Shown here: piece after piece, positions 9,204 through 63,800 of the stretch
How positions within the stretch are numbered: position 1 is the first letter of the stretch
Layout: every line of letters begins with the position of its first letter
Translations under genes and position numbers: made by a program
The notes under the pieces: model-generated
Databases searched by the model: none
What the model was told of the DNA's origin: nothing
The model's input: the letters and a program-made list of their open reading frames with translations, nothing else
Assembly: GCA_030390025.1 (NCBI GenBank)
Contig: CM059432.1
Span: 2,418,001-2,482,000, forward strand
Source: Squalus acanthias
Taxonomy: Eukaryota
Direction of reading: 5' to 3'
DNA: 64,000 bases

Positions 9204-10348
9204 CATAGAATCATAGAAAGTTACAGCACAGAAGTAGGCCATTTCGGCCCATCGTGTCCATACCGGCCAACAAAGAGCTATCCAGCCTAATCCCAGTTCC
9301 CAGCTCTTGGTCCTTAGTCCTGCAGGTTAGAGCATCCCAAGTGCACATCCAAGTACTTTTTAAATGTGGTTCGGGTTCCTGCCTCTACCACCCTTTCAGG
9401 CAGTGAGTTGCAGACCCCCACCACCCTCTGGGTGAAGAAATTTCCCCTCAAATCCCCTCTAAACCTTCCACCAATTACTTTAAATCTGTGCCCCCTGGTT
9501 TTTGCCCCCTCTGCTAAGGGAAATAGGTCCTTTCTATCCACTTTATCTATGCCCCTCATAATTTTATACACCTCAATAAGGTCTCCCCTCAGCCTCCTCT
9601 GTTCCAAGGAAAACAGACCCAGCCTATCCAGTCTTTCCTCATAGCTAAGATTCTCTACTCCCGGCAACATCCTTGTAAATCTCCTCTGTACCCTCTCTAG
9701 TGCAATCACATCTTTCCTGTAATGTGGTGACCAGAACTGCACGCAGTACTCTAGCTGAGGCCTAACTAGTGTTTTATACAGTTGAAGCATAACCCCCCTG
9801 CTCTTGTATTCTATGCCACGGCTAATAAAGCAAGCATTCCGTATGCCTTCTTAACCACCTTATCTACCTGGCCTGCTACCTTCAGGGATCTGTGGACATG
9901 CACTCCAAGGTCCCTTTGTTCCTCTACACTACTCAGTGTCCTACCATTTAATGTGTATTCCCTTTCCTTGTTAGCCCACCCCAAATGCATTACCTCACAC
10001 TTCTCCGGATTGAATTCCATTTGCCACTGTTCTGCCCACCTGACCAATTTATTGATATCTTCCTGCAGTCTACAGCTTCCTTCTTCAGTATCAGCAGACA
10101 GCCGATTTTAGTATTATCTGCAAACTTCTTAATCATACCCCCTATATTCAAGTCAAGATCATTGATATATACCACAAAAAGCAAGGGACCTAGTACTGAG
10201 CCCTGCGGAACCCCACTGGAAACAGCCTTCCAGTCACAAAAACACCCATCAACCATTACCCTCTGCTTCCTGTCTCCGAGCCAGTTTTGAATCCAACTTG
10301 ACACTTTGCCCTGGATCCCATGGGCTTTTAACTTCGTGACCAGTCTGC
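9204..10348 (-). mobile_element. CR1 LINE 3' portion (RT C-terminus + 3' UTR)
   Basis: [41 protein letters not shown]; (ATTCTATG)n tail. Confidence 0.9.
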
Positions 10349-26263: not shown

Positions 26264-27116
26264 ATAGACTATCTATTCCTTCATCCAAGTCATTAATAAA
26301 TATAGATCCCCGGGGGACTAGTCACATCCTGCCAATTGGAGTACATACCCATTATCCCTACTCTCTGTCTCCTGCCTCCTATCCAACTCCCTATCCAGGC
26401 CAATAGGTTGCCTCCAATTCCACGCGCTCCCATTTTTGTTAACAGTCTCTTATGTGACCTCAGTCTAGAGAGGAGTGGGTGGAACTGCAGGCGAAGGCAC
26501 AGAGCAATAGGGGATCAGGGCGGGTGTGAAATAGAGGGGCTTGGGAGTTCAGGGTGTTGAGGGAAGAGGAGGAGGAGGAAACATGGGATGAGACAGCCCT
26601 ATGAACAGTCACAATCTTAGAGATGGAAAACTCTATGAAGTACCTGCACTCGCTACATGAGCTCGCATTCTTACTGAGAACTGATCAACCATGATGAAGA
26701 AGTTTGCAGATGATACAAAAATTGGCTGTGTGGTCGATAATGAGGAAGAAAGCTGCAGACTGCAGGAAGATATCAATGGACTGGTCAGGTGGGCAGAAAA
26801 GTGGCAAATGGATTTCAATCCGGAGAAGTGTGAGGTAATGCATTTGGGGAGGGCTAACAAGGCAAGGGAATACACAATAAATGGTAGGACACTGAGAAAG
26901 GTAAAGGAACAAAGGGACCTTGGAGTGCATGTCCACAGATCCCTGAAGGTAGCAGGACAGGTAGATGAGGTGGTTAAGAAGGCATAATGGATACTTTCCT
27001 TTATTAGCCGTGGCATAAATATAAGCCATGATGCGGAGATGCCGGTGTTGGACTGGGGTGGACAAAAGTGAGAAGTCGCACAACACCAGGTTATAGTCCA
27101 ACAGTTTTATTTGAAA

Positions 27117-27154
27117 TCACAAGCTTTCGGAGCTGCTGCCCCTTCGTCAGGTGA
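27117..27154 (-). ncRNA. Minimal hammerhead ribozyme (family A terminal repeat)
   Basis: UCAC-CUGACGA-A-GGGGC(AGCA)GCUCC-GAAAG-CUU-GUGA. Confidence 0.8.
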
Positions 27155-28060
27155 AGTGAAGGAATACAAATCGGCACAGCATATATAGACAGAGAACAAT
27201 GCATGTGCAGCGTACAATGTCAGACGACTACATTTAATCCTTCTGACTGCCTTTCGTCACACCTCGGCAGAGAAACAATCAGGTCAGCCAGGAAGGCACC
27301 ACATCAAAGACATAGCAAGATACAACTGAGACAATGAGGTGGGGTCACAGGGGGTCTAATGTGTCAAATGCTGCAGTATGTATGGAAAACCATAAACTTT
27401 AACATTTTTACTTTTTTTTTACTGGAAATCATATCTGTGAACAAGCCAACGACGACTCGAGTCTGGATGACTCTACGTCATGTAGCGTGACATGAACCCT
27501 AGATCCCGGTTGAGGCCGTCTTCATGGGCGCGGAACTTGGCTATCAGTTTCTGCTCGATGATTTTGCGTTGTCGTGTGTCTCGAAGGCCGCCTTGGAGAA
27601 CGCTTACCCGCAGATCCGAGGCTGAATGTCCTTGACTGCTGAAGTGTTCCCCGACTGGGAGGGAACACTCCTGCCTGGCGATTGTTGCGCGGTGTCCGTT
27701 CATACGTTGTCTCAGTGTCTGCATGGTCTCACCGATGTACCATGCTCTGGGGCATCCTTTCCTGCAACAAATCAGGTAGACAACGTTGGCTGAGTCACAT
27801 GAGTATGTACCATGTACCTGGTGGGTAGTGTCCTCACGTGTGATGATGGTATCTGTGTTGATGATCTGGCATGTCTTGCAGAGGTTGCCGTGGCAGGGTT
27901 GTGTGGTGTCATGGTCGCTGTTATCCTGAAAGCTGGGTAATTTGCTGCGAACGATGGTACTTCTGAGGTTAGGCAGCTGAGGGTAGGCTGCGACACCACA
28001 GACTTCTTACAGAAACTCAGCACCCACGGATCAGTTGAACCAGGAACACTCCTCGCCACG

Positions 28061-29431
28061 ATGGACGTATCGGCACTCTACACCAGTATCCCCCACGATG
28101 ACGGCATCGCTGCGACAGCCTCAGTACTCAACACCAACAACAGCCAATCTCCAGACGCCATCCTACAACTCATCCACTTCATCCTTGACCACAATGTCTT
28201 CACCTTCGACAACCATTTTTTTACCCAAACACACGGAACAGCCATGGGGACCAAATTCGCACCCCAATACGCCAACATCTTCATGCACAAGTTCGAGCAA
28301 GACTTCTTCGCTGCACAGGACCTCCAGCCAACGCTGTACACCAGATACATCGACAACATTTTCTACCTTTGGACCCACGGTGAAGGATCACTGAAAAGAC
28401 TACACGATAACATCAACAAGTTCCATCCCACCATCAAACTCACCATGGACTACTCCTCAGAATCGGTTTCATTCCTGGACACACGAATCTCCATCAAAGA
28501 CGGACACCTCAGCACTTCACTCAACCACAAGCCCACGGACAACCTCACGATGCTTCACTTCTCCAGCTACCACCCTAACCACGTTAAAGAAGCCATCCCC
28601 TATGGACAAGCCCTGCGAATACACAGGATCTGCTCAGACGAGGAGGAACGCGATGGACACCTACGGACGCTGAAAAACGTCCTCGTAAGAATGAGATATG
28701 ACGCTCGACTCATCGATCGACAGTTCCGACGGGCCACAGCGAAAAACCGCATAGACCTCCTCAGAAGGCGAACACGGGACACAACCAACAGGGTACCCTA
28801 CGTCGTCCAGTACTTCCCCGGAGCGGAGAAACTACGCCATGTTCTTCGCAGCCTTCAACATGTCATCGATGACGACGAACACCTCGCTAAGGCCATCCCC
28901 ACGCCTCCACTACTCGCCTTCAAACAGCTGCCTAACCTCAGAAGTACCATCGTTTGCAGCAAATTACCCAGCTTTCAGGATAACAGCGACCACGACACCA
29001 CACAACCCTGCCACGGCAACCTCTGCAAGACATGCCAGATCATCAATACAGATACCATCATCACACGTGAGGACACTACCCACCAGGTACATGGTACATA
29101 CTCATGTGACTCGGCCAACGTTGTCTACCTGATTCGTTGCAGGAAAGGATGCCCCAGAGCATGGTACATCGGCGAGACCAGGCAGACACTGAGACAACGT
29201 ATGAACGGACACCGCGCAACAATCGCCAGGCAGGAGTGTTCCCTCCCAGTCGGGGAGCACTTCAGCAGTCAAGGACATTCAGCCTCGGATCTGCGGGTAA
29301 GCGTTCTCCAAGGCGGCCTTCGAGACACACGACAACGCAAAATCATCGAGCAGAAACTGATAGCCAAGTTCCGCACTCATGAGGACGGCCTCAACCAGGA
29401 TCTAGGGTTCATGTCATGCTACATGACATAG
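28061..29431 (+). CDS. Penelope-like RT + Cys linker + GIY-YIG endonuclease (N-truncated; RT YIDD changed to YIDN)
   Basis: MDVSALYTSIP, GTAMGTKFAPQYAN, RYIDNIF, PCHGNLCKTC, VVYLIRC..WYIGET..RMNGH, GLN. Confidence 0.9.
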   Translation: MDVSALYTSIPHDDGIAATASVLNTNNSQSPDAILQLIHFILDHNVFTFDNHFFTQTHGTAMGTKFAPQYANIFMHKFEQDFFAAQDLQPTLYTRYIDNIFYLWTHGEGSLKRLHDNINKFHPTIKLTMDYSSESVSFLDTRISIKDGHLSTSLNHKPTDNLTMLHFSSYHPNHVKEAIPYGQALRIHRICSDEEERDGHLRTLKNVLVRMRYDARLIDRQFRRATAKNRIDLLRRRTRDTTNRVPYVVQYFPGAEKLRHVLRSLQHVIDDDEHLAKAIPTPPLLAFKQLPNLRSTIVCSKLPSFQDNSDHDTTQPCHGNLCKTCQIINTDTIITREDTTHQVHGTYSCDSANVVYLIRCRKGCPRAWYIGETRQTLRQRMNGHRATIARQECSLPVGEHFSSQGHSASDLRVSVLQGGLRDTRQRKIIEQKLIAKFRTHEDGLNQDLGFMSCYMT

Positions 29432-29743
29432 AGTCATCCAGACTCGAGTCGTCGTTGGCTTGTTCACAGATATGATTTCCAGTAAAAAAAAGTAAAAATT
29501 TTAAAGTTTATGGTTTTCCATACAGACTGCAGCATTTGACACATTAGACCCCCTGTGACCTCATTGTCTCAGTTGTATCTTGCTATGTCTTTGATGTGGT
29601 GCCTTCCTGGCTGACCTGATTGTTTCTCTGCCGAGGTGTGACGAAAGGCAGTCAGAAGGATTAAATGTAGTCGTCTGACATTGTACGCTACACATGCATT
29701 GTTCTCTGTCTATATATGCTTTGTCGATTCGTATTCCTTTACT

Positions 29744-29781
29744 TCACCTGACGAAGGAGCAGCCGCTCCGAAAGCTTGTGA
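29744..29781 (+). ncRNA. Minimal hammerhead ribozyme (family A terminal repeat)
   Basis: UCAC-CUGACGA-A-GGAGC(AGCC)GCUCC-GAAAG-CUU-GUGA; stems I and II pair; palindromic AAGCUU stem III. Confidence 0.82.
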
Positions 29782-30627
29782 TTTCAAATAAAACTGTTGG
29801 ACTATAACCTGGTGTTGTGCGACTTCTCACTTTTATAGAATATAAGAGCAGGGAAGTTATGCTTGAACTGTATAAAACACTAGTTAGGGCACAGCTAGAA
29901 TACTGCGTACAGTTCTGGTCACCACATTACAGGAAAGATGTGATTGCACTAGAGAGGGTACAGAGGAGATTTACAAGGATGTTGCCAGGACTGGAGAATT
30001 TTAGCTATGAGGAAAGATTGGATTGGCTGGGGTTGTTTCCTTTGGAACAGAGGAGGCCAAGGGGATACTTAATAGAGTGTGTAAAATTATGAGGGGCCTA
30101 GATAGAGTGGATAGGAAGGACCTATTTCCCTTAGCAGAGAGCCCAATAACCAGGGGGCAGAGATTTAAAGTAATTGGTAGAAGGATTAGAGGGGAGTTGA
30201 GGAGAACTTTTTTCACCCAGAGGGTGGTGGGGGTCTGGAACTCACTGCCTGAAAGGGTGGTAGAGGCAGAAACCCTCATCACATTTAAAAAGTACTTGGA
30301 TATGCACTTGAAGTGCCGTAGCCTACAGGGCTACGGACCAAGAGCTGGAAAGTGGGATTAGGCTGGATAGCTCTTTGTCGGCCGGCACAGACACGATGGG
30401 CTGAATGGCCTCCTTCTGTACTGTAAACGTCTATGATTCAATGAACCACACCCAGTGAGGGACAATTCCTTTAGAAGGCAATCGCCAAATTCATATTTCT
30501 CAAATATGTGAGTCCAGCATTCTAGTGCTCAAGCTAGCTCGTAATGCAGTATCAGTCTGACATCTTACAGAATGTTGTATGTAATCTCTGTGTAATTAAC
30601 GACCCTTACTCTCGTTAAGCTGAGTGT

Positions 30628-32929: not shown

Positions 32930-33665
32930 ATCATAGAGTCATACAGCACAGAGGAGGCCATTCGGTCCATCGTACCTGTGCTGGCTCTTTGAACAAGCTC
33001 TCCAATTAGTCCCACTCACCCCGCCCTTTCCCCATAGCTCTGCAGTTTTTTCTCCTTCAAGTATTTATCCAGTTCCCTTTTGAAAGTTACTATTGAATCT
33101 GCTTCCACCGCCCTTTCAGGCAGCGCATTCCAGATCATAACAACTCGCTGCGTAAAAAAAATTCTCCTCATCTCCCCTCTGGTTCTTTTGCCAATTATCT
33201 TAAATCTGTGTCCTCTGGTTACCGACCCTCCTGCCTTTGGAAACAGTTTCTCATTATTAACACTAGCAAAACCCCTCATGATTTTGAACACTTCTAAAAT
33301 CTCCCCTTAACCTTCTCTGCTCCAAGGAGAACAACCCCCAGCTTCTCCAGTCTCTCCACATAACTGAAGTTCCTCATCCCTGGAACCATTCCAGTAAATC
33401 TCCTCTGCACCCTCTCCAAGGCCTTGACATCCTCCCTAAAGTGTGGTGCCCAGAATTGGACACAATACTCCAGCTGGGGCCGAACCAGTGATTTATAAAG
33501 TTTTAGCACAACTTACTTGCTTTTGTACTCTATGCCTCTATTTATCAAGCCCAGGATCCCGTATGTTATTTTTAAAAGCCTTCTCAACTGGCCCTGCCAC
33601 CTTCAAAGATTTGTGTATTACACCCCAAGGTCTCTCTGTTCCTGTGCCCCCTTCAAATTGTACCA
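32930..33665 (-). mobile_element. CR1 3' fragment
   Basis: [29 protein letters not shown]. Confidence 0.88.
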
Positions 33666-33880
33666 GATCTGAAACAATTGTAACAAACCTTAAACTTGTT
33701 GGCAACTGATATTAATTAAAAAGGAAAATGCAAATGCTGAAAATATGAATACAAAATAGATCAATCAGCATCTCAGGAAAAAACAGTAGTATGATGATTT
33801 GGTTCTAATGAGGGTTAATAAAAACTGAAAATGCTGGAAACACTCAGCAGGTCAGGCAGCATCTGTGGAGAGTGAAACAG

Positions 33881-33917
33881 AGTTAACGTTTCAGGTCAAT
33901 GACCCTTCGTCAGAACT
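33881..33917 (-). ncRNA. Minimal hammerhead ribozyme (family B) in a solo terminal-repeat fragment (33820-33917)
   Basis: AGUU-CUGACGA-A-GGGUC(AUU)GACCU-GAAAC-GUU-AACU. Confidence 0.8.
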
Positions 33918-34414: not shown

Positions 34415-35434
34415 ATAAACACTAACGTAGGGCAGGGTTAACCATAAGAACAATTAGGGTTTAGAGTGTCCAGAGATTGTACAGCTATTTGAAGTTTGAG
34501 TTGGATTTCTGTGTCTGTAATCCAGCAGTGTGGATGGATTACACACGGCGAAGTTAAGTCAACCGAACATTTTTCGCAACCATAAATATTTTATATTTTG
34601 GTGTAAATTTAGACCTTCTTGATCCCCAGCATTACTTTCTGTTTTGAAAACAGTCAACCATAACTGCCTGGGATTTAATACAGAATCTTCCTGCTTTCTT
34701 TGTCTGTTTATGATTTCATATTTACACAGTTATCTAAGCACAGGGTTCTGTCACATCTACTTTTTACTACATTAACAACAACTTGCATTTCTATAGCGCC
34801 TTAGAATCATAGAATCATAGAATGGTTACAGAACAGAAGGAGGCCATTCGGCCCGTCGAGCCCGTGCCGGCTCTCTGCAAGAGCAGTTCAGCTAGTCCCA
34901 CTCCCCCGCCCTTTCCCCGTAGCCCTGCAAAATTTTTTCCTTCAGGTACTTATCCAACTCCCTTTTGAAAGCCGTGATTGAGTCTGCCTCCACCACCCTC
35001 TCAGGCAGTGCATTCCAGATCATAACCACTCGCTGCGTAAAAAAGTTTTTCCTCATGTCGCCTTTGGACCTTCTGCCAATCACCTTAAATCTGTGTCCTC
35101 TGGTTCTCGACCCTTCCGCCAATGGGAACAGTTTCTCTCTATCTACTCTGTCCAGACCCCTCATGATTTTGAACACCTCTATCAAATCTCCTCTCAATCT
35201 TCACTGCTCTAAGGAGAACAACCCCAGCTTCTCCAGTCTATCCATGTAACTGAAGTCCCTCATCCCTGGAACCATTCTTGTAAATCTTTTCTGCACCCTC
35301 TCTAAGGCCTTCACATCCTTCCTAAAGTGCGGTGCCCAGAATTGGGCACAATACTCCAGTTGAGGCCAAACCAGTGTTTTATAAAGGTTCATCATAACTT
35401 CCTTGCTTTTGTACTCTATACCTCTATTTATGAA

Positions 35435-35555
35435 TGCTTTGGCGATTCTGTATCTTTTTACTTCACCCGACGAAGGAGTAGTAAGCTCCGAAAGCTTGTG
35501 ATTTAAAATAAAACTGTTGGACTATAACCTGGTGTTGTGCGACCTCTCAATTTTG
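35435..35555 (+). mobile_element. 121-bp Penelope terminal-repeat insertion containing a hammerhead motif (35463-35501)
   Basis: Matches 29717-29834; perfect 12-bp duplication TCTATTTATGAA (35423-35434, 35556-35567); core reads CCGACGA..GAAAGCTT. Confidence 0.88.
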
Positions 35556-37519
35556 TCTATTTATGAAGCCCAGGATCCCGTAAGCTTGTTTAACCGCGAT
35601 CTCAACCTGCCCTGCCACCTTCAACGATTTGTACACATACACTCCCAGGTGTCTCTGTTCATGCACCCCCTTTAGGATTGTACCCTCTAGTTTATATTGC
35701 CTCTCCTCGTTCTTCCTACCAAAATGTATCACTTCACACTTTTCTGCCTTAAATTTCATCTGCCATGTGTCTGCCCATTCCACCAGCCTGTCTATGTCCT
35801 CTTGAAGTCTATCACTATCCTCCTCACTGTTCACTATACTTCCAAGCTTTGTGTCATCTGCAAATTTTGAAATTGTGCCCTGTACACCCACATCCAAGTC
35901 ATTAATATATATCAAGAAAAGCAGTGGTCTTAGAACTGACCCCTAGGGAACACCACTGTATACCTTCCTCCAGTCCGAAAAACAACCGTTCACCACTACT
36001 CTCTGTTTCCTATCACTTAGCCAATTCTGTATCCATGCTGCCACTGTCCCTTTTATTCCATGGGCTTCAACTTTGCTGGCAAGCCTATTATGTGGCACTT
36101 TATCAAACACCTTTTGGAAGTCCATGTACACCACATCAACCGCATTGCCCTCATCAACCCTCTCTGTTACCTCATCAAAAAACTCAATCAAGTTAGTTAA
36201 ACACGATTTGCCTTTAACAAATCCATGCTGGCTTTCCTTAATTAATCCACACTTGTTCAAGTGACTGTTAATTTTGTCCCGGATTATAGTTTCTAAAAGC
36301 TTCTCCACTACCGAGGTTAAATTGACTGGCCTGTAGTTGCTGGGTTTATCCTTACACCCTTTTTGAACAAGGGTGTAACATTTGCAATTCTCCAGTCCTC
36401 TGACACCACCCCGGTATCTAAGGAGGATTGGAAGATTATGGCCAGTACCTCCGCAATTTCCATCTTTACTTCTTTCAGCATCCTCGGATGCATCCCATCC
36501 GGTCCTGGTGACTTATCTACTTTAAGTACAGCCAGACTTTCTAGTATCTCCTCTTTATCAATTTTTATACCATTCAGCATCTTCGTCCTTCGTAAAGACA
36601 GATGCAAAGTACTCATTTAGTACCTCAGCCATGCCCTTTGCCTCCATGTGTAGGTCTCCATTTTGGTCCCTAATCGGCCCCAGCCCTCATCTTACTACCC
36701 GTTTACTATTTATATGCCTATAGAAGACTTTTGGATTCCCTTTTATGTTAGCTGTCATTCTATTCTCATACCCTCGCTTTGCCCCTCTTATTTTCTTTTC
36801 ACTTCCCCTCTGAACTTTTTCTATATTCAGCCTGGTTCACACTTGTATTCTCAACCTGACATCTTTCTGCTTCATCTTACTCTCTATCTCTTTCGTCATC
36901 CAGGGAGCTCTGTCTTTGGTTGCCCTACCTTTCCCCCTCGTGGGAATGTACCTAGGCTCTACCTGAACCATCTCCTCTTTAAAGGCAGCCCATTGTTCCA
37001 TTACAGTTTTGCCTGACGATCTTTGATTCCAATTTACCTGGGCCAGATCCATTCTCAACCCACTGAAATTGGCCTTCCTCCAATTAAGTATTTTTACTCT
37101 AGATTGCTCCCTATCCTTTTCCATAGCTAATCTAAACCTTATGATACTATGATCACTGTTCCCTAAATGTTCCCCTACTGACACTTGCTCCACTTGACCC
37201 ACCTCATTCCCCACAACCAGATCCAGCAATGCCTCTTTCCTCATTGGGCTGGAAGCATACTGATCAAGTTCTCCTGAACACACTTCAGAAATTCTTCCCC
37301 CTCTCTGCCCTTTACACTATTACTATCCAAGTCTACATTAGGATAGTTGAAGTTCCCCGTTTTCACTACTCTATAGTTCTTGAACCTCTCTGTAATTTCC
37401 CTACAAATTTGCTCCTCTATATCCTTCCCACTAGTTGGTGGTCTATAGAATACACCTAGTAGTGTAATGTCACCTCTATTGTTTCTCAACTCTAACCAAA
37501 CAGATTCTGTCCTTGACCC

Positions 37520-47060: not shown

Positions 47061-47379
47061 TTGGCGACTTATAAATCACTTCTCAGAAATGGGCTGGAAG
47101 TGTAGCCTGTACCAAGTCGCACACTAGCAGCGCCAATCACTCATTCAGGCTTAAGAATGTAACCTATTTAGCGGACTGTCACTCTTAAAAATAAACACAG
47201 CCAGTATCTTTAAATAGGTTTGCAATCTATGCCACTCAACATCTTCCTGAAGTGGGTGGATGGGAGGCTGCTTTGGCTGTTTGTAATGCTCGAGAGAAAA
47301 AAAAATTATCCTTGCAGAGATAGAACATTAGGGATTTATTAGGAACATTAATTTTTTTTCTCTCTCTTCTTTCCTCACA

Positions 47380-47682
47380 TGGTAGCTGTTAATGTTGCTG
47401 CCATCATCATCCACACATCATCCAGAGCCATCTTTTGTTTCTTAACTTGTCCCATTACCATCTCCTTTTGCCTTGCACCATCATCCCTTTTGTCAGTCAA
47501 TCTCTCCTGCCTTCCATCCTATCACAGACCTTCCCTTTGTTCTTTCCTCCCCTCCTCCCTGCCCCTGCTTAAAAATCTCTCCTCTGACGAAGGGTTCGAC
47601 TCGAAACGTTAACTCTGTTTCTCTCTCTCCTCGATGCTGCCTGACCTGCTGAGTGTTCCCAGCACTTTCTGTTGTTATTTCA
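47380..47682 (+). mobile_element. Penelope family B 3' UTR/terminal repeat with hammerhead core at 47584-47610
   Basis: CUGACGA-A-GGGU(UCG)ACUC-GAAAC-GUU; 5' arm of stem I disrupted. Confidence 0.7.
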
Positions 47683-48847
47683 GAACATTAGGGATTCTGA
47701 GAGTCATGAGCACTGGATGAATCTGTTGTTAGATCAAGTAAGGTTACAAAGGCTGGCATTTGAAAATAGGGGACCAAACAAGGGACAATTCGAAGCTTAA
47801 AAGTAGAAGGATGGTCTAAGGTGGGCTGTTGTGAACACTCCTGCAGTTTGTAGCTTGGATTTTTCCGATCACTGGCATTAAAGTAACAGCGATTGGAAAA
47901 TAGGGAATTATATGGCAAAGGAACTTCAATATACCTGTAGATAAATGTGTGGTGGTGCATTTTGGTAGAAGGAACAAGGAGGCCACACACTCATTGGAAA
48001 ATAAGAGTCTAAATGGGGTAGAGGAGCAAAGGGGTCCAGGGGATACAGGTACACAAATCACTAAAAGTAGCGACACAAGTTAACAAGGCCATAAAAATGC
48101 AAACAAAGCACTGGGGTTCATTTCTAGAGGAATAGAATTGAAAAATAAGAAAGTTATGTTAGACATATAGAACCTTGGTTCAACCATACTTGGAGTACTA
48201 TGCACAGTTTTGGTCTTCAGATTAAAAAAAGGATATAGAGGCACTGGAGATAGTGCCATAAAGATTTCCAAGGATGATACTAGACCTGAGAGGTTATAAC
48301 TATCAGGAAAGATTGAACAGGCTGGGGCATATTTCTCTAGAAAGGTGAAGGCTGAGGGGTGACCTAATAAAGGTCTTTAAGATTCTGAAAGGGTTTGATA
48401 GGGTAGACGTAGAGAAGATATTTCCACTTGTAGGGAGGCCAAAACTAGTGATAATGACCAGATAGTCTGGTTTTAGTGATGTTGGTTGAGCGAAAAATAG
48501 TGGCCAGGACACCAGGGAGAACTTAATTGAGGTGTATAAAATTATGAGGGGCCTAGATAGAGTGGATAGGAAGGACCTATTTCCCTTAGCAGAGGGGTCA
48601 ATAACCAGGGGGTAAAGATTTAAAGTAATTGGTAGAAGGATTAGAGGGGATTTGAGGAGAACTTTTTTCACCCAGAGGGTGGTGGGGGTCTGGAACTCAC
48701 TGCCTGAAAGGGTGGTAGAGGCAGAAACCCTCATCACATTTAAAAAGTACGATAGCAAAATACTGCGGATGCTGGAAAATTGAAACAACAACAGAAAACG
48801 CTGGAAAAACTCAGCAGGCCAGGCAACATCCGTGGAGAGAGAAACAG

Positions 48848-48883
48848 AGTTAACGTTTCAGGTCGAAACCCTTCGTCAGAACT
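48848..48883 (-). ncRNA. Minimal hammerhead ribozyme (family B terminal repeat)
   Basis: AGUU-CUGACGA-A-GGGU(UUCG)ACCU-GAAAC-GUU-AACU. Confidence 0.82.
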
Positions 48884-49171
48884 GAGAAAAAAGCAGGAAA
48901 TGAAACAGATAAAAAAGCAAGGGGGAGGCTGGGGGGAGGAATAAAAGAACAAAAGGGGTGGTCTATGGTCAGTAGAGACATTAAGAGATGCTCAAGGCGA
49001 GACGAGATGGTAATAGGACAGGTTAAGAAACAAAAGGTGGCTCAGAAGTGTGAAGTGTGAAATGCTGGCAGAATGAGAGACAGTTGCCGTGTGGGAGAGA
49101 GAGAAAAAAAAGGGAAAAGGCACAAACCAAAAGTGTGGATAAAATATATATATATGTGGTAGGGGCCGAGG

Positions 49172-50680
49172 TTATGATCTGAAATTGTTGAACTCGATAT
49201 TGAGTCCAGAAGGCTGTAAAGTGCCTAATCGGAAGATGAGGTGCTGTTCCTCGAGCTTACGCTGAGCTTCCGTGGAACAATGCAAGAGGCCGAGGTCGGC
49301 TAGGTCTGAGTGGGCGTGGAGAGGTGAATTAAAATGACAGGCGACCGGAAGCTCGGGGTCACCCTTACGGACTGAACGGAGGTGTTCCGCAAAGCGGTCA
49401 CCCAATCTGCGTTTGGTCTCCCCAATATAGAGGAGACCACATCGTGAGCAGCGAATACAGTATACTAAATTGCAAGAAGTACAAGTAAATCGCTGTTTCA
49501 CCTGGAAGGGGTGTTTGGGGCCCTGGAGAGTGGGAAGGGGGGAGGTATAAGGGCATGTGTTGCATCTCCTGCGCTTGCACGGGAAGGTGCCGGGCAAGGG
49601 GGTAGGGGTGCTGGGGGTGATAGAGGAGTGGACTAGGGTGTCTCGGAGGGAGCGGTCCCTGTGGAATGCTGAAAGGGGAGGTGAGGGGAAGATACGTTTG
49701 GTGGTGGGATCACGTTGGAGGTGGCGGAAATGGCGAAGGATGATCCGTTGAATGTGGAGGCTGGTGGGGTGAAAGGTGAGGACAAGGGGAACTCTACCGT
49801 GGTTCCGGGAGGGAGGGGCCGGGGTGAGGGCAGAAGTGTGGGAGATGGAACGGACACGGTCGAGGGCCGTGTCGACCACGGTAGAGGGGAATCCTCGGTT
49901 GAGGAAAAAGGAAGACATGTCGGAAGCACTGGTATGGAAGGTGGCATCGTCGGAGCAGATGCGGTGGAGACGGAGAAACTGGGAGAAGGGAATAGAGTCC
50001 TTACAGGAGGCGGGGTGGGAGGAAGTGTAGTCCAGGTAGCTATGGGAGTCAGTGGGCTTATAGTGAATGTTGGTCAATAACCTATCCCCAGAGATGGAGA
50101 CGGAGAAGTCGAGGAAGGGAAGGGAGGAGTCGGAGATGGACCATGTGAAGGTGAGGGAAGGGTGGAAATTGAAGGCAAAGTGAATGAAATTGTCTAGTTC
50201 AGGGCGAGAGCAGGAAACAGCACCGATACAGTCGTCAATGTACCGGAAAAAGAGGTGAGGGAGGGGACCCGAGTAGGACTGGAACAAAGAGTGTTCCACA
50301 TATCCCACGAAAAGGCAGGCATAGCTAGGACCCATGCGGGTACCCATAGCAACACCTTTGATTTGGAGGAAATGAGTGGAGTCAAAGGAGAAGTTGTTCA
50401 ATGTGAGAACAAGTTCAGCCAGGTGGAGGAGGGTGGAGGTGGATGGGGTCTGGTTGGGCCTTTGTTCAAGGAAGAAGCGGAGCGCCCTCAGGCCATCCTG
50501 GTGGGGGATGGAGGTGTAGAGGGATTGTACGTCCATAGTGAAAAGGAGGCGGTTGGGGCCAGGAAACTGGAAACTGTTAAAGTGGCGGAGGGCATCAGAG
50601 GAGTCGCGGATGTAGGTGGGAAGAGACTGGACAAGGGGAGAAGAAATAGAGTCGAGATAGGAAGAGATAAGTTCCGTGGG
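49172..50680 (-). CDS. Penelope-like RT + Cys linker + GIY-YIG endonuclease (N-truncated, no internal stops)
   Basis: YIRDSSD, MDVQSLYTSIP, GVAMGTRMGPSYA, RYIDDC, PCKRRRCNTC, LVYCIRC..LYIGETKR..RFAEH, GLN. Confidence 0.92.
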   Translation of the reverse strand, partial: PTELISSYLDSISSPLVQSLPTYIRDSSDALRHFNSFQFPGPNRLLFTMDVQSLYTSIPHQDGLRALRFFLEQRPNQTPSTSTLLHLAELVLTLNNFSFDSTHFLQIKGVAMGTRMGPSYACLFVGYVEHSLFQSYSGPLPHLFFRYIDDCIGAVSCSRPELDNFIHFAFNFHPSLTFTWSISDSSLPFLDFSVSISGDRLLTNIHYKPTDSHSYLDYTSSHPASCKDSIPFSQFLRLHRICSDDATFHTSASDMSSFFLNRGFPSTVVDTALDRVRSISHTSALTPAPPSRNHGRVPLVLTFHPTSLHIQRIILRHFRHLQRDPTTKRIFPSPPLSAFHRDRSLRDTLVHSSITPSTPTPLPGTFPCKRRRCNTCPYTSPLPTLQGPKHPFQVKQRFTCTSCNLVYCIRCSRCGLLYIGETKRRLGDRFAEHLRSVRKGDPELPVACHFNSPLHAHSDLADLGLLHCSTEAQRKLEEQHLIFRLGTLQPSGLNIEFNNFRS

Positions 50681-50844
50681 GCAAAAAAAGTACTTGGATA
50701 TGCACAAGAAGTGTCGTAACCTGCAGGGCTACGGACCAAGAGCTGGAAAGTGGGATTAGGCCAGATAGCTCTTTGTCGGCCGGCACAGACACGATGGGCC
50801 GAATGGCCTCCTTCTGTGCCGTAAATTTCTACGATTCTATGATT

Positions 50845-50988
50845 CCCCCCTTTCCCTTCCTCTGCACCTGCTTAAAACCTCTAACTTTTTCCAGTTCTGA
50901 CAAAAGGTCACAGACCTGAAACGTTAACCCTCTTTCTCTCTCCGCAGATGCTGCCTGACCTGCTGAGTGTTTCCAGCGTATATTTCAA
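50845..50988 (+). mobile_element. Solo family B terminal repeat with mutated hammerhead (50893-50928)
   Basis: Core reads CUGACAA instead of CUGACGA; GAAACGUUAAC retained. Confidence 0.7.
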
Positions 50989-51059
50989 GGACATTGAGCC
51001 TCTTGACTTTCTCAGTGGTGAAGGTCAAGAGGAGGGAAGGTCCTGTCCAAGTATCCTTT

Positions 51060-54214: not shown

Positions 54215-54271
54215 CCCTTATATGTTGGAAATACTCAGCAGGTCAGGCAGCATCTGTGGAAAGAGACACAG

Positions 54272-54308
54272 AGTTAACGTTTCAGGTCGGTGACCCTTCG
54301 TCAGAACT
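54272..54308 (-). ncRNA. Minimal hammerhead ribozyme (family B) in a solo fragment (54225-54308)
   Basis: AGUU-CUGACGA-A-GGGUC(ACC)GACCU-GAAAC-GUU-AACU. Confidence 0.8.
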
Positions 54309-54350
54309 GCAAACCTAAATGCATCTCATTTATTTGAGATGTTATACTTT

Positions 54351-63364: not shown

Positions 63365-63573
63365 CAGAGGCAAAATGCTGCGGATGCTGGAAATCTGAAA
63401 TACAATGAGAAAACGCTGGAAGCACTCAGCAGGTCAGGCAGCATCGGTGGAGAGAGAAACAGAGTTAACGTTTCAGGTCGGTTCAGGTTCTGACGGCAGG
63501 TCACCGACCTGAAACGTGAACTCTGTTTCTCTCTCTACCGATGCTGCCTGACCGGCTGAGTTTTTCCAGCATT
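63365..63573. mobile_element. Inverted pair of Penelope family B terminal repeats with degenerate hammerheads
   Basis: 63365-63482 (-) and 63487-63573 (+); + core reads CUGACGG..GAAACGUG. Confidence 0.75.
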
Positions 63574-63574
63574 T

Positions 63575-63800
63575 CCTGAAAGGTCTGGCTCTAATTTTCA
63601 GACTCTGCCCTCTAGTCCTAGAATCCCCAACCAGTGGAAATAGTTTCTCTCTATCTACCCTTTCTGTTCCCCTTAATATCTTGAAAACTTCGATCAAATC
63701 ACCTCTTTAATCATCTAAATTCCAGGGAATACAACCCTGGTTTGTGCAATCTCTCCTCGTAATTTAACCCTTAGAGTCCAGCTATGATTCTGGTAAAGCA
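63575..63800 (-). mobile_element. CR1 fragment
   Basis: IEVFKILRGTERVDREKLFPL. Confidence 0.75.

Follow-up and report, generated by a model that had tools for sequence, protein, structure and literature searches.

Within the 64,000-nt stretch of Squalus acanthias DNA analyzed here (the window), a 121-bp insertion (35435-35555, plus strand) is most probably a dead, extremely 5′-truncated copy of a Penelope-like retroelement (PLE), defined here as “family A.” It comprises the 3′-most part of the element, without the element's optional tail. As in truncated PLEs, the 121-mer is collinear with the 3′ end of the element, shares its reverse transcriptase (RT) start site and is flanked by a target-site duplication (TSD). 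A reading from the letters alone (the sequence-only reading) had proposed either extreme 5′ truncation or a non-autonomous retrozyme- or SINE-like ribozyme element; the first of these fits best.

The insertion is bounded by two exact copies of a 12-bp sequence, at 35423-35434 on the left (CR1 sequence, 83% A+T) and 35556-35567 on the right (both plus strand). It splits a minus-strand LINE fragment that is presumably of CR1 type; the extent of the fragment (35000-35684) is approximate and comes from paralog matches. When both strands of the window were searched, the 12-mer TCTATTTATGAA was found only at 35423 and 35556. We rebuilt the empty site by deleting the insert and one 12-mer. The resulting CR1 sequence is continuous and aligns with the paralog at 33454-33641 at 84% over 189 columns, without a gap at the insertion site; it also aligns with a second paralog (9744-9921). 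As a control, flush repeats of at least 12 nt were detected in 223 of 20,000 random 121-nt windows, and these background cases are probably mostly tandem arrays. Chance duplication as the source of the flanking 12-mers is ruled out by the uniqueness of the 12-mer together with the clean empty site. Because the empty site is clean, the duplication is a true insertion scar, and the original description of a 121-bp unit splitting a CR1 between perfect 12-bp repeats holds.

The targets of both family A insertions in the window are 12 nt long with 83% A+T, vs. 52% for the window. The two insertions lie in different CR1 copies and in opposite orientations, at corresponding positions separated by only 15 nt (indices 93 and 108 of the paralog 33454-33641). 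Their duplications, both 12 nt and AT-rich, are at 35423-35434 and at 29835-29846/27015-27025. A local target preference of family A is possible (n = 2).

In a search of the window, the insert matched 29717-29834 with 89.2% identity and 27181-27063 with 87.6%. These are the two arms of the family A element, and no further match to the insert was found in the window at E ≤ 1e-3, in agreement with the earlier assignment of the insert to the last ~120 nt of that element. The whole element spans ~27026-29834 and encodes RT and GIY-YIG regions in an ORF remnant at 27941-29431 (plus strand; 496 aa, 5′-incomplete), in which an RT, a linker and a GIY-YIG-type end follow one another. Pfam identified the RT domain (PF00078, E = 3.5e-07). 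The GIY-YIG-type end, with its CCHH residues, was read by eye from the translation and had no GIY-YIG match in Pfam. The linker has a C-x4-C-xx-C pattern, read as CHGNLCKTC. The plus-strand arm ends in the stretch homologous to the insert (29717-29834), which is tail-less and has an intact hammerhead core at 29748-29754. Ahead of the ORF lies an inverted, 5′-truncated arm on the minus strand, which reaches 27988, contains the second homologous stretch (27063-27181) and carries the tail that the plus arm lacks. That optional tail (27027-27062, minus strand, about 35-36 nt) is also missing from the insert. An inverted 5′-truncated arm and an optional 30-40 nt tail at one end are usual for endonuclease-bearing (EN+) PLEs, and a CX2-5CxxC linker upstream of the GIY-YIG is a Neptune/Nematis trait (PMC8557442). 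Judged by these features, family A is an endonuclease-bearing PLE of standard layout. Its linker would be of the Neptune/Nematis type, a clade label given by motif and not by tree.

The 3′ end of the insert coincides with an end that the family uses elsewhere. In element coordinates it lies at 27063, compared with 27064 for the plus arm, in agreement with the reported spacing of about 1 nt, and 27064 is also the end in one flank-bearing contig from run X1. The boundary of the insert is ambiguous by 2 nt, as target and tail both begin with TC. Tail-bearing ends occur in the same run at 27027 and 27028 (83 and 73 contigs, respectively, with mixed flanks), so the tail is 35-36 nt long and not ~38 nt (27025-27062) as first measured. 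In a published PLE, the RT starts inside its own RNA at two adjacent sites that bound the tail; in the same study AT-rich DNA was cut and uncut RNA served as the template (PMC11167929, Frangieh et al. 2024). The insert appears to have used the tail-less start site. The preferred priming point suspected by the sequence-only reading is thus real, but corresponds to the internal start already published for the RT of PLEs (PMC11167929). Among the raw reads of another organism (run X22), 15 partial reads aligned to 27025-27204, mainly over the 3′-most 180 nt. Three of them end at the tail position 27028, which points to a related family with a common tail end in that organism. Runs X6 and X23 gave 0 records each, so that of the four runs compared only X1 was informative.

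The insert carries a type I minimal hammerhead motif (35463-35501, plus strand) with the architecture described in PMC4209133. Helix I (4 bp) pairs 35463-35466 with 35498-35501. The core (35467-35473) reads CCGACGA and is followed by an extra A (35474), a 5-bp helix II (35475-35489) and GAAA (35490-35493), with a palindromic AGCU in place of helix III. From consensus numbering, cleavage is predicted between 35497 and 35498. As this position is internal, ribozyme cleavage was rejected as the maker of either end of the insert. All hammerhead features are complete in both family A arms, whose core is CTGACGA; the insert has all of them except U4, which is changed to C at 35468 (U4C), exactly the substitution noted at the outset. 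Rfam at E ≤ 1 scored no hammerhead in its 10 weak matches, all of which are unrelated. In silico, two strands co-fold via the AGCU palindrome. The fold of the whole insert is no more stable than that of shuffled sequences (z = 0.81) and is therefore no evidence either way.

U4C is described as considerably lowering activity while viroid infectivity persists (PMC3088659), and no cleavage was detectable for single minimal hammerheads (PMC4209133). PAc, a Poseidon-type PLE of Anolis carolinensis, still inserted in vitro when its hammerhead core was mutated (PMC11167929). Whether or not U4C is counted, the copy is probably inert. The earlier suggestion that it may be inactive is reasonable, but U4C is not the sole ground for it and would reduce activity rather than abolish it. 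In family B, a second PLE family of the window, the core at 48879 (minus strand) and 50897 (plus strand) is preceded, at a distance of 2 nt, by a pyrimidine tract that ends in CAG and resembles a 3′ splice site; the corresponding triplet in family A is CAC. An intron end maps to helix I in D. virilis Penelope (PMC4209133).

The insert differs from the arm at 27 kb by 13 substitutions and two 1-nt insertions. In run X1, four of the 13 substitutions are widespread in the family (12-71% of depth) and at most two others (one G>A and one G>T) could be common, leaving at least seven, U4C included, at less than 4% of contig depth. Neither 1-nt insertion is among the variants listed at the 4% threshold. 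The U4C site (27149) is likewise absent from all six A>G sites that exceed 4% of depth in the contigs of that run, and U4C is thus rare in family A, at less than 4% of contig depth. This rules it out as a marker of any common subfamily, although a subfamily rarer than 4% would escape detection at this threshold. The rare substitutions, at 35442, 35456, 35468, 35479, 35482-35483 and 35544, fit decay in place.

For the 5′ end, we compared the target with the element sequence that immediately precedes the truncation point. Over its final 13 nt, the target agrees with the element at 9 of 13 positions, a joint-best score reached at only two of 1833 positions of the plus arm, the other being 4 nt away (shuffle p = 0.006, for a test chosen after the alignment had been seen). 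For the 12-mer the score is 8 of 12, reached at four of 1834 positions (p = 0.02). Truncated LINEs have been modelled as cDNA annealing to a target overhang (PMC4245944). The target similarity fits such annealing and would make the 5′ end specific to this particular site.

The contigs of run X1 provide a second, weak test. Alignment to a 600-bp arm gave 14902 contigs, with ~55% of the run covered. Summed depth, which is not copy number, averages 0.90M just inside the 5′ end of the insert (27145-27184) and 0.96M just outside (27185-27224); further upstream the bins range from 0.16M to 1.5M, and there is no step at the 5′ end. Among the loose ends listed, beyond which lay 275 further rows, there is no pile at 27181, but the tail-less 3′ end is missing from the same listing, which is thus insensitive to a pile-up at this position. 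Joints seen in single contigs are scattered (27099, 27120, 27157 and 27206). Depth over 27065-27104 is 5-7 times that upstream, a peak that numerous very short copies, or a block common to related families, could explain. The window provides one family A copy of this length. Most PLE insertions are 5′-truncated with one terminal repeat (bioRxiv 10.64898/2026.07.22.740005), and minimal hammerheads (min-HHRs) are mostly single and derive from truncated PLEs (PMC4209133).

Family B served as a control. Its ORF remnant is 33% identical to the family A ORF, and its long copy (48780-50990) has the same layout, with the ORF remnant on the minus strand (50605-49199), a 3′ end with tail near 48780 and, at ~50886-50979, a short inverted arm. 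A 99-bp copy (33818-33916, minus strand) is flanked by a perfect 14-bp TSD and starts 3 nt before an intact core; this insertion is both smaller and cleaner than the 121-bp unit. A 345-bp copy (47337-47681, plus strand) is flanked by a 15-bp TSD, and its 5′ junction contains a short target-like filler. These two were the only ones of six family B motifs examined in which an exact TSD search found flush duplications; the other four had none fitting. The 3′ ends of the 99- and 345-bp copies lie 96 and 98 nt after C3. Because they end nearly alike, a fixed 3′ end combined with differing 5′ ends, in copies that are sometimes very short, is not special to the 121-bp insert. No 5′ microhomology is evident in the 99-bp copy (4 of 14). 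Other family B copies lose their homology some 10 nt or less from the core, a hint of clustering.

Two further family B loci have unusual structures. At 63370-63578, two very short family B ends form a back-to-back fold-back pair joined beside the core, which is the source of the weak mir-14 score in Rfam. At 54222-54313 (minus strand), a short family B end whose homology begins a few nt before the core is followed directly by another abundant repeat, and no TSD was found.

We weighed several other origins against truncation at the target site. One is that the RT primes at the internal start of the upstream pseudo-LTR (pLTR) and copies to the 5′ end of the RNA. The 121 nt would then measure how far the RT start lies from the start of transcription, and solo repeats of fixed length would arise without an independent family. 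In vitro, PAc RT does start internally on RNA spanning the pLTR-ORF junction, with a product that shortens when the RNA is 5′-truncated (PMC11167929), and PLE promoters have been placed in the pLTR (PMC8557442, PMC11167929). The high depth over the 3′-most 40 nt in run X1 and the several family B copies that begin just upstream of the core also agree with it. However, the depth step expected at 27181 is missing and target similarity already accounts for the 5′ end, making this origin rather improbable. Also conceivable is a longer insertion that was shortened afterwards by a microhomology-mediated deletion from the left TSD to the similar 13-mer in the element. Such a deletion would be directed by the 9-of-13 similarity, and its outcome would look identical. 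It needs a second event, though, the left TSD is wholly of target type (12 of 12), and primary truncation is the norm for PLEs (PMC8557442; bioRxiv 10.64898/2026.07.22.740005), so we regard a later deletion as highly improbable.

The remaining alternatives give the unit a life of its own. Divergence of 11-12% from both arms and two 1-nt insertions, next to a TSD that is still perfect, might suggest a short non-autonomous subfamily, re-transcribed from host promoters and mobilized in trans by a PLE protein. Against this, at least seven of the 13 substitutions lie below 4% of depth, neither insertion is listed as a variant, and the window holds no second copy. The insert was also scanned with the Pol III A- and B-box consensus patterns, allowing one mismatch: B boxes were absent from both strands, the sense strand lacked an A box as well, and the antisense strand had one A-box-like match. 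Rfam gave no tRNA or 5S match to the insert. Non-autonomous PLE derivatives such as Chlamys/MRC1 do exist (PMC8557442; bioRxiv 10.64898/2026.07.22.740005), but the insert is missing the tail, which is needed for endonuclease recognition in D. virilis Penelope (cited in PMC11167929). Overall we consider such a subfamily very unlikely. A type I hammerhead in a small unit also recalls a monomer of a non-LTR retrozyme, made from ribozyme-cut circular RNA. Reported retrozymes include monomers and units as small as 51 bp, occur in one chondrichthyan among others, and derive from pLTRs (PMC7229834; bioRxiv 10.64898/2026.07.22.740005). Such elements are tandem units with at least two hammerheads; within the 64-kb window we found one unit with one ribozyme and no tandem copy within 2 kb. 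Its head-to-tail junction is unmatched in the window beyond the unit's own first half (best 21 of 30), its ends are those of the PLE and not the predicted cut site, and its motif is minimal, of the dimer type and altered by U4C. A retrozyme origin is accordingly barely credible. The proposed retrozyme- or SINE-like family gains no support from these observations: the unit has a single ribozyme, no head-to-tail junction and no sense-strand Pol III boxes, and there is neither a depth step at the 5′ end nor a common U4C variant. Metagenome contigs and viral contigs, scanned with exact patterns, contained 0 loci each. Altogether, it is unlikely that the PLEs of this genome form a distinct class of fixed-length mini-insertions of ~100-120 bp, containing the hammerhead and the RT start site, whether produced by priming in the upstream pLTR and copying to the transcription start or by a self-propagating non-autonomous subfamily.

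Under the preferred reading, a truncated family A copy, the GIY-YIG endonuclease of the element would have cut AT-rich DNA of an old CR1 with a 12-nt stagger; the duplication is observed, the enzyme presumed. The RT would have been primed on the cut DNA and copied from the tail-less internal start, a mechanism suggested by the end position and by the published PLE (PMC11167929). It would then have read through the uncut hammerhead and halted after 121 nt, probably at a point where the overhanging strand of the target could pair with the cDNA, as the similarity to the target and the analogy with LINEs suggest. Repair would have left the 12-bp duplication, and later decay in place, presumably including U4C, would have produced the present copy. 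In family A, 55-90 nt separate the hammerhead from the RT start site, and therefore any very short copy of the family contains it. This accounts for how little besides the hammerhead the unit seems to hold.

The hammerhead motif of the insert resembles the min-HHRs of truncated metazoan PLEs (Cervera and De la Peña 2014, PMC4209133) in its type I minimal core, short helix I, extra nucleotide left unpaired between position 9 and helix II, G-C pair at the base of that helix and palindromic 15.2/16.2, as well as in its location in a PLE terminal repeat; those motifs, too, are mostly single and dispersed. It differs in a 5-bp helix II, compared with 7-8 bp in Schistosoma motifs, and in U4C, and TSD-resolved 121-bp copies are not listed in the available portion of that paper. 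With PAc, family A shares two adjacent 3′ endpoints that bound a 30-40 nt tail, an RT start downstream of the hammerhead and AT-rich targets (PMC11167929). Use of uncut RNA as template and insertion despite core mutations, demonstrated for PAc (PMC11167929), would also fit family A. Family A differs in its C-x4-C-xx-C linker, which is absent from Penelope/Poseidon (PMC8557442). Non-LTR retrozymes are similar in being small non-coding units with a type I hammerhead and a relationship to PLE pLTRs. They are defined by tandem units, two or more ribozymes and circular RNA, whereas the insert is a single unit collinear with a PLE end (PMC7229834; bioRxiv 10.64898/2026.07.22.740005). The 5′ junction is comparable to the annealing-type joining of truncated LINEs, in which the target overhang anneals to nascent cDNA and yields 5′-truncated inserts with microhomology (Yamaguchi et al. 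2014, PMC4245944). However, that model was shown for L1 and zebrafish LINEs, not PLEs, and the homology of the insert is imperfect (9 of 13, with 1 nt exact at the junction). Our literature search, from which most subscription papers and Repbase were excluded, found nothing on fixed-length PLE mini-insertions or on family A.

Dispersed single minimal hammerheads from truncated PLEs have been known since 2014 (PMC4209133), and by its sequence the 121-bp insertion appears to be an ordinary object of this kind. As an ordinary truncated copy it matters little beyond providing a tidy genomic example of the two-site initiation published for PLEs. It also hints that in PLEs, as in LINEs, pairing with the target overhang can fix the position of the 5′ end. 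Should mini-insertions of fixed length nevertheless prove to be a class genome-wide, their ends would map the transcription start in vivo and the smallest RNA that PLEs mobilize, and would bear on the origin of retrozymes by offering a direct route to them from PLE ends.
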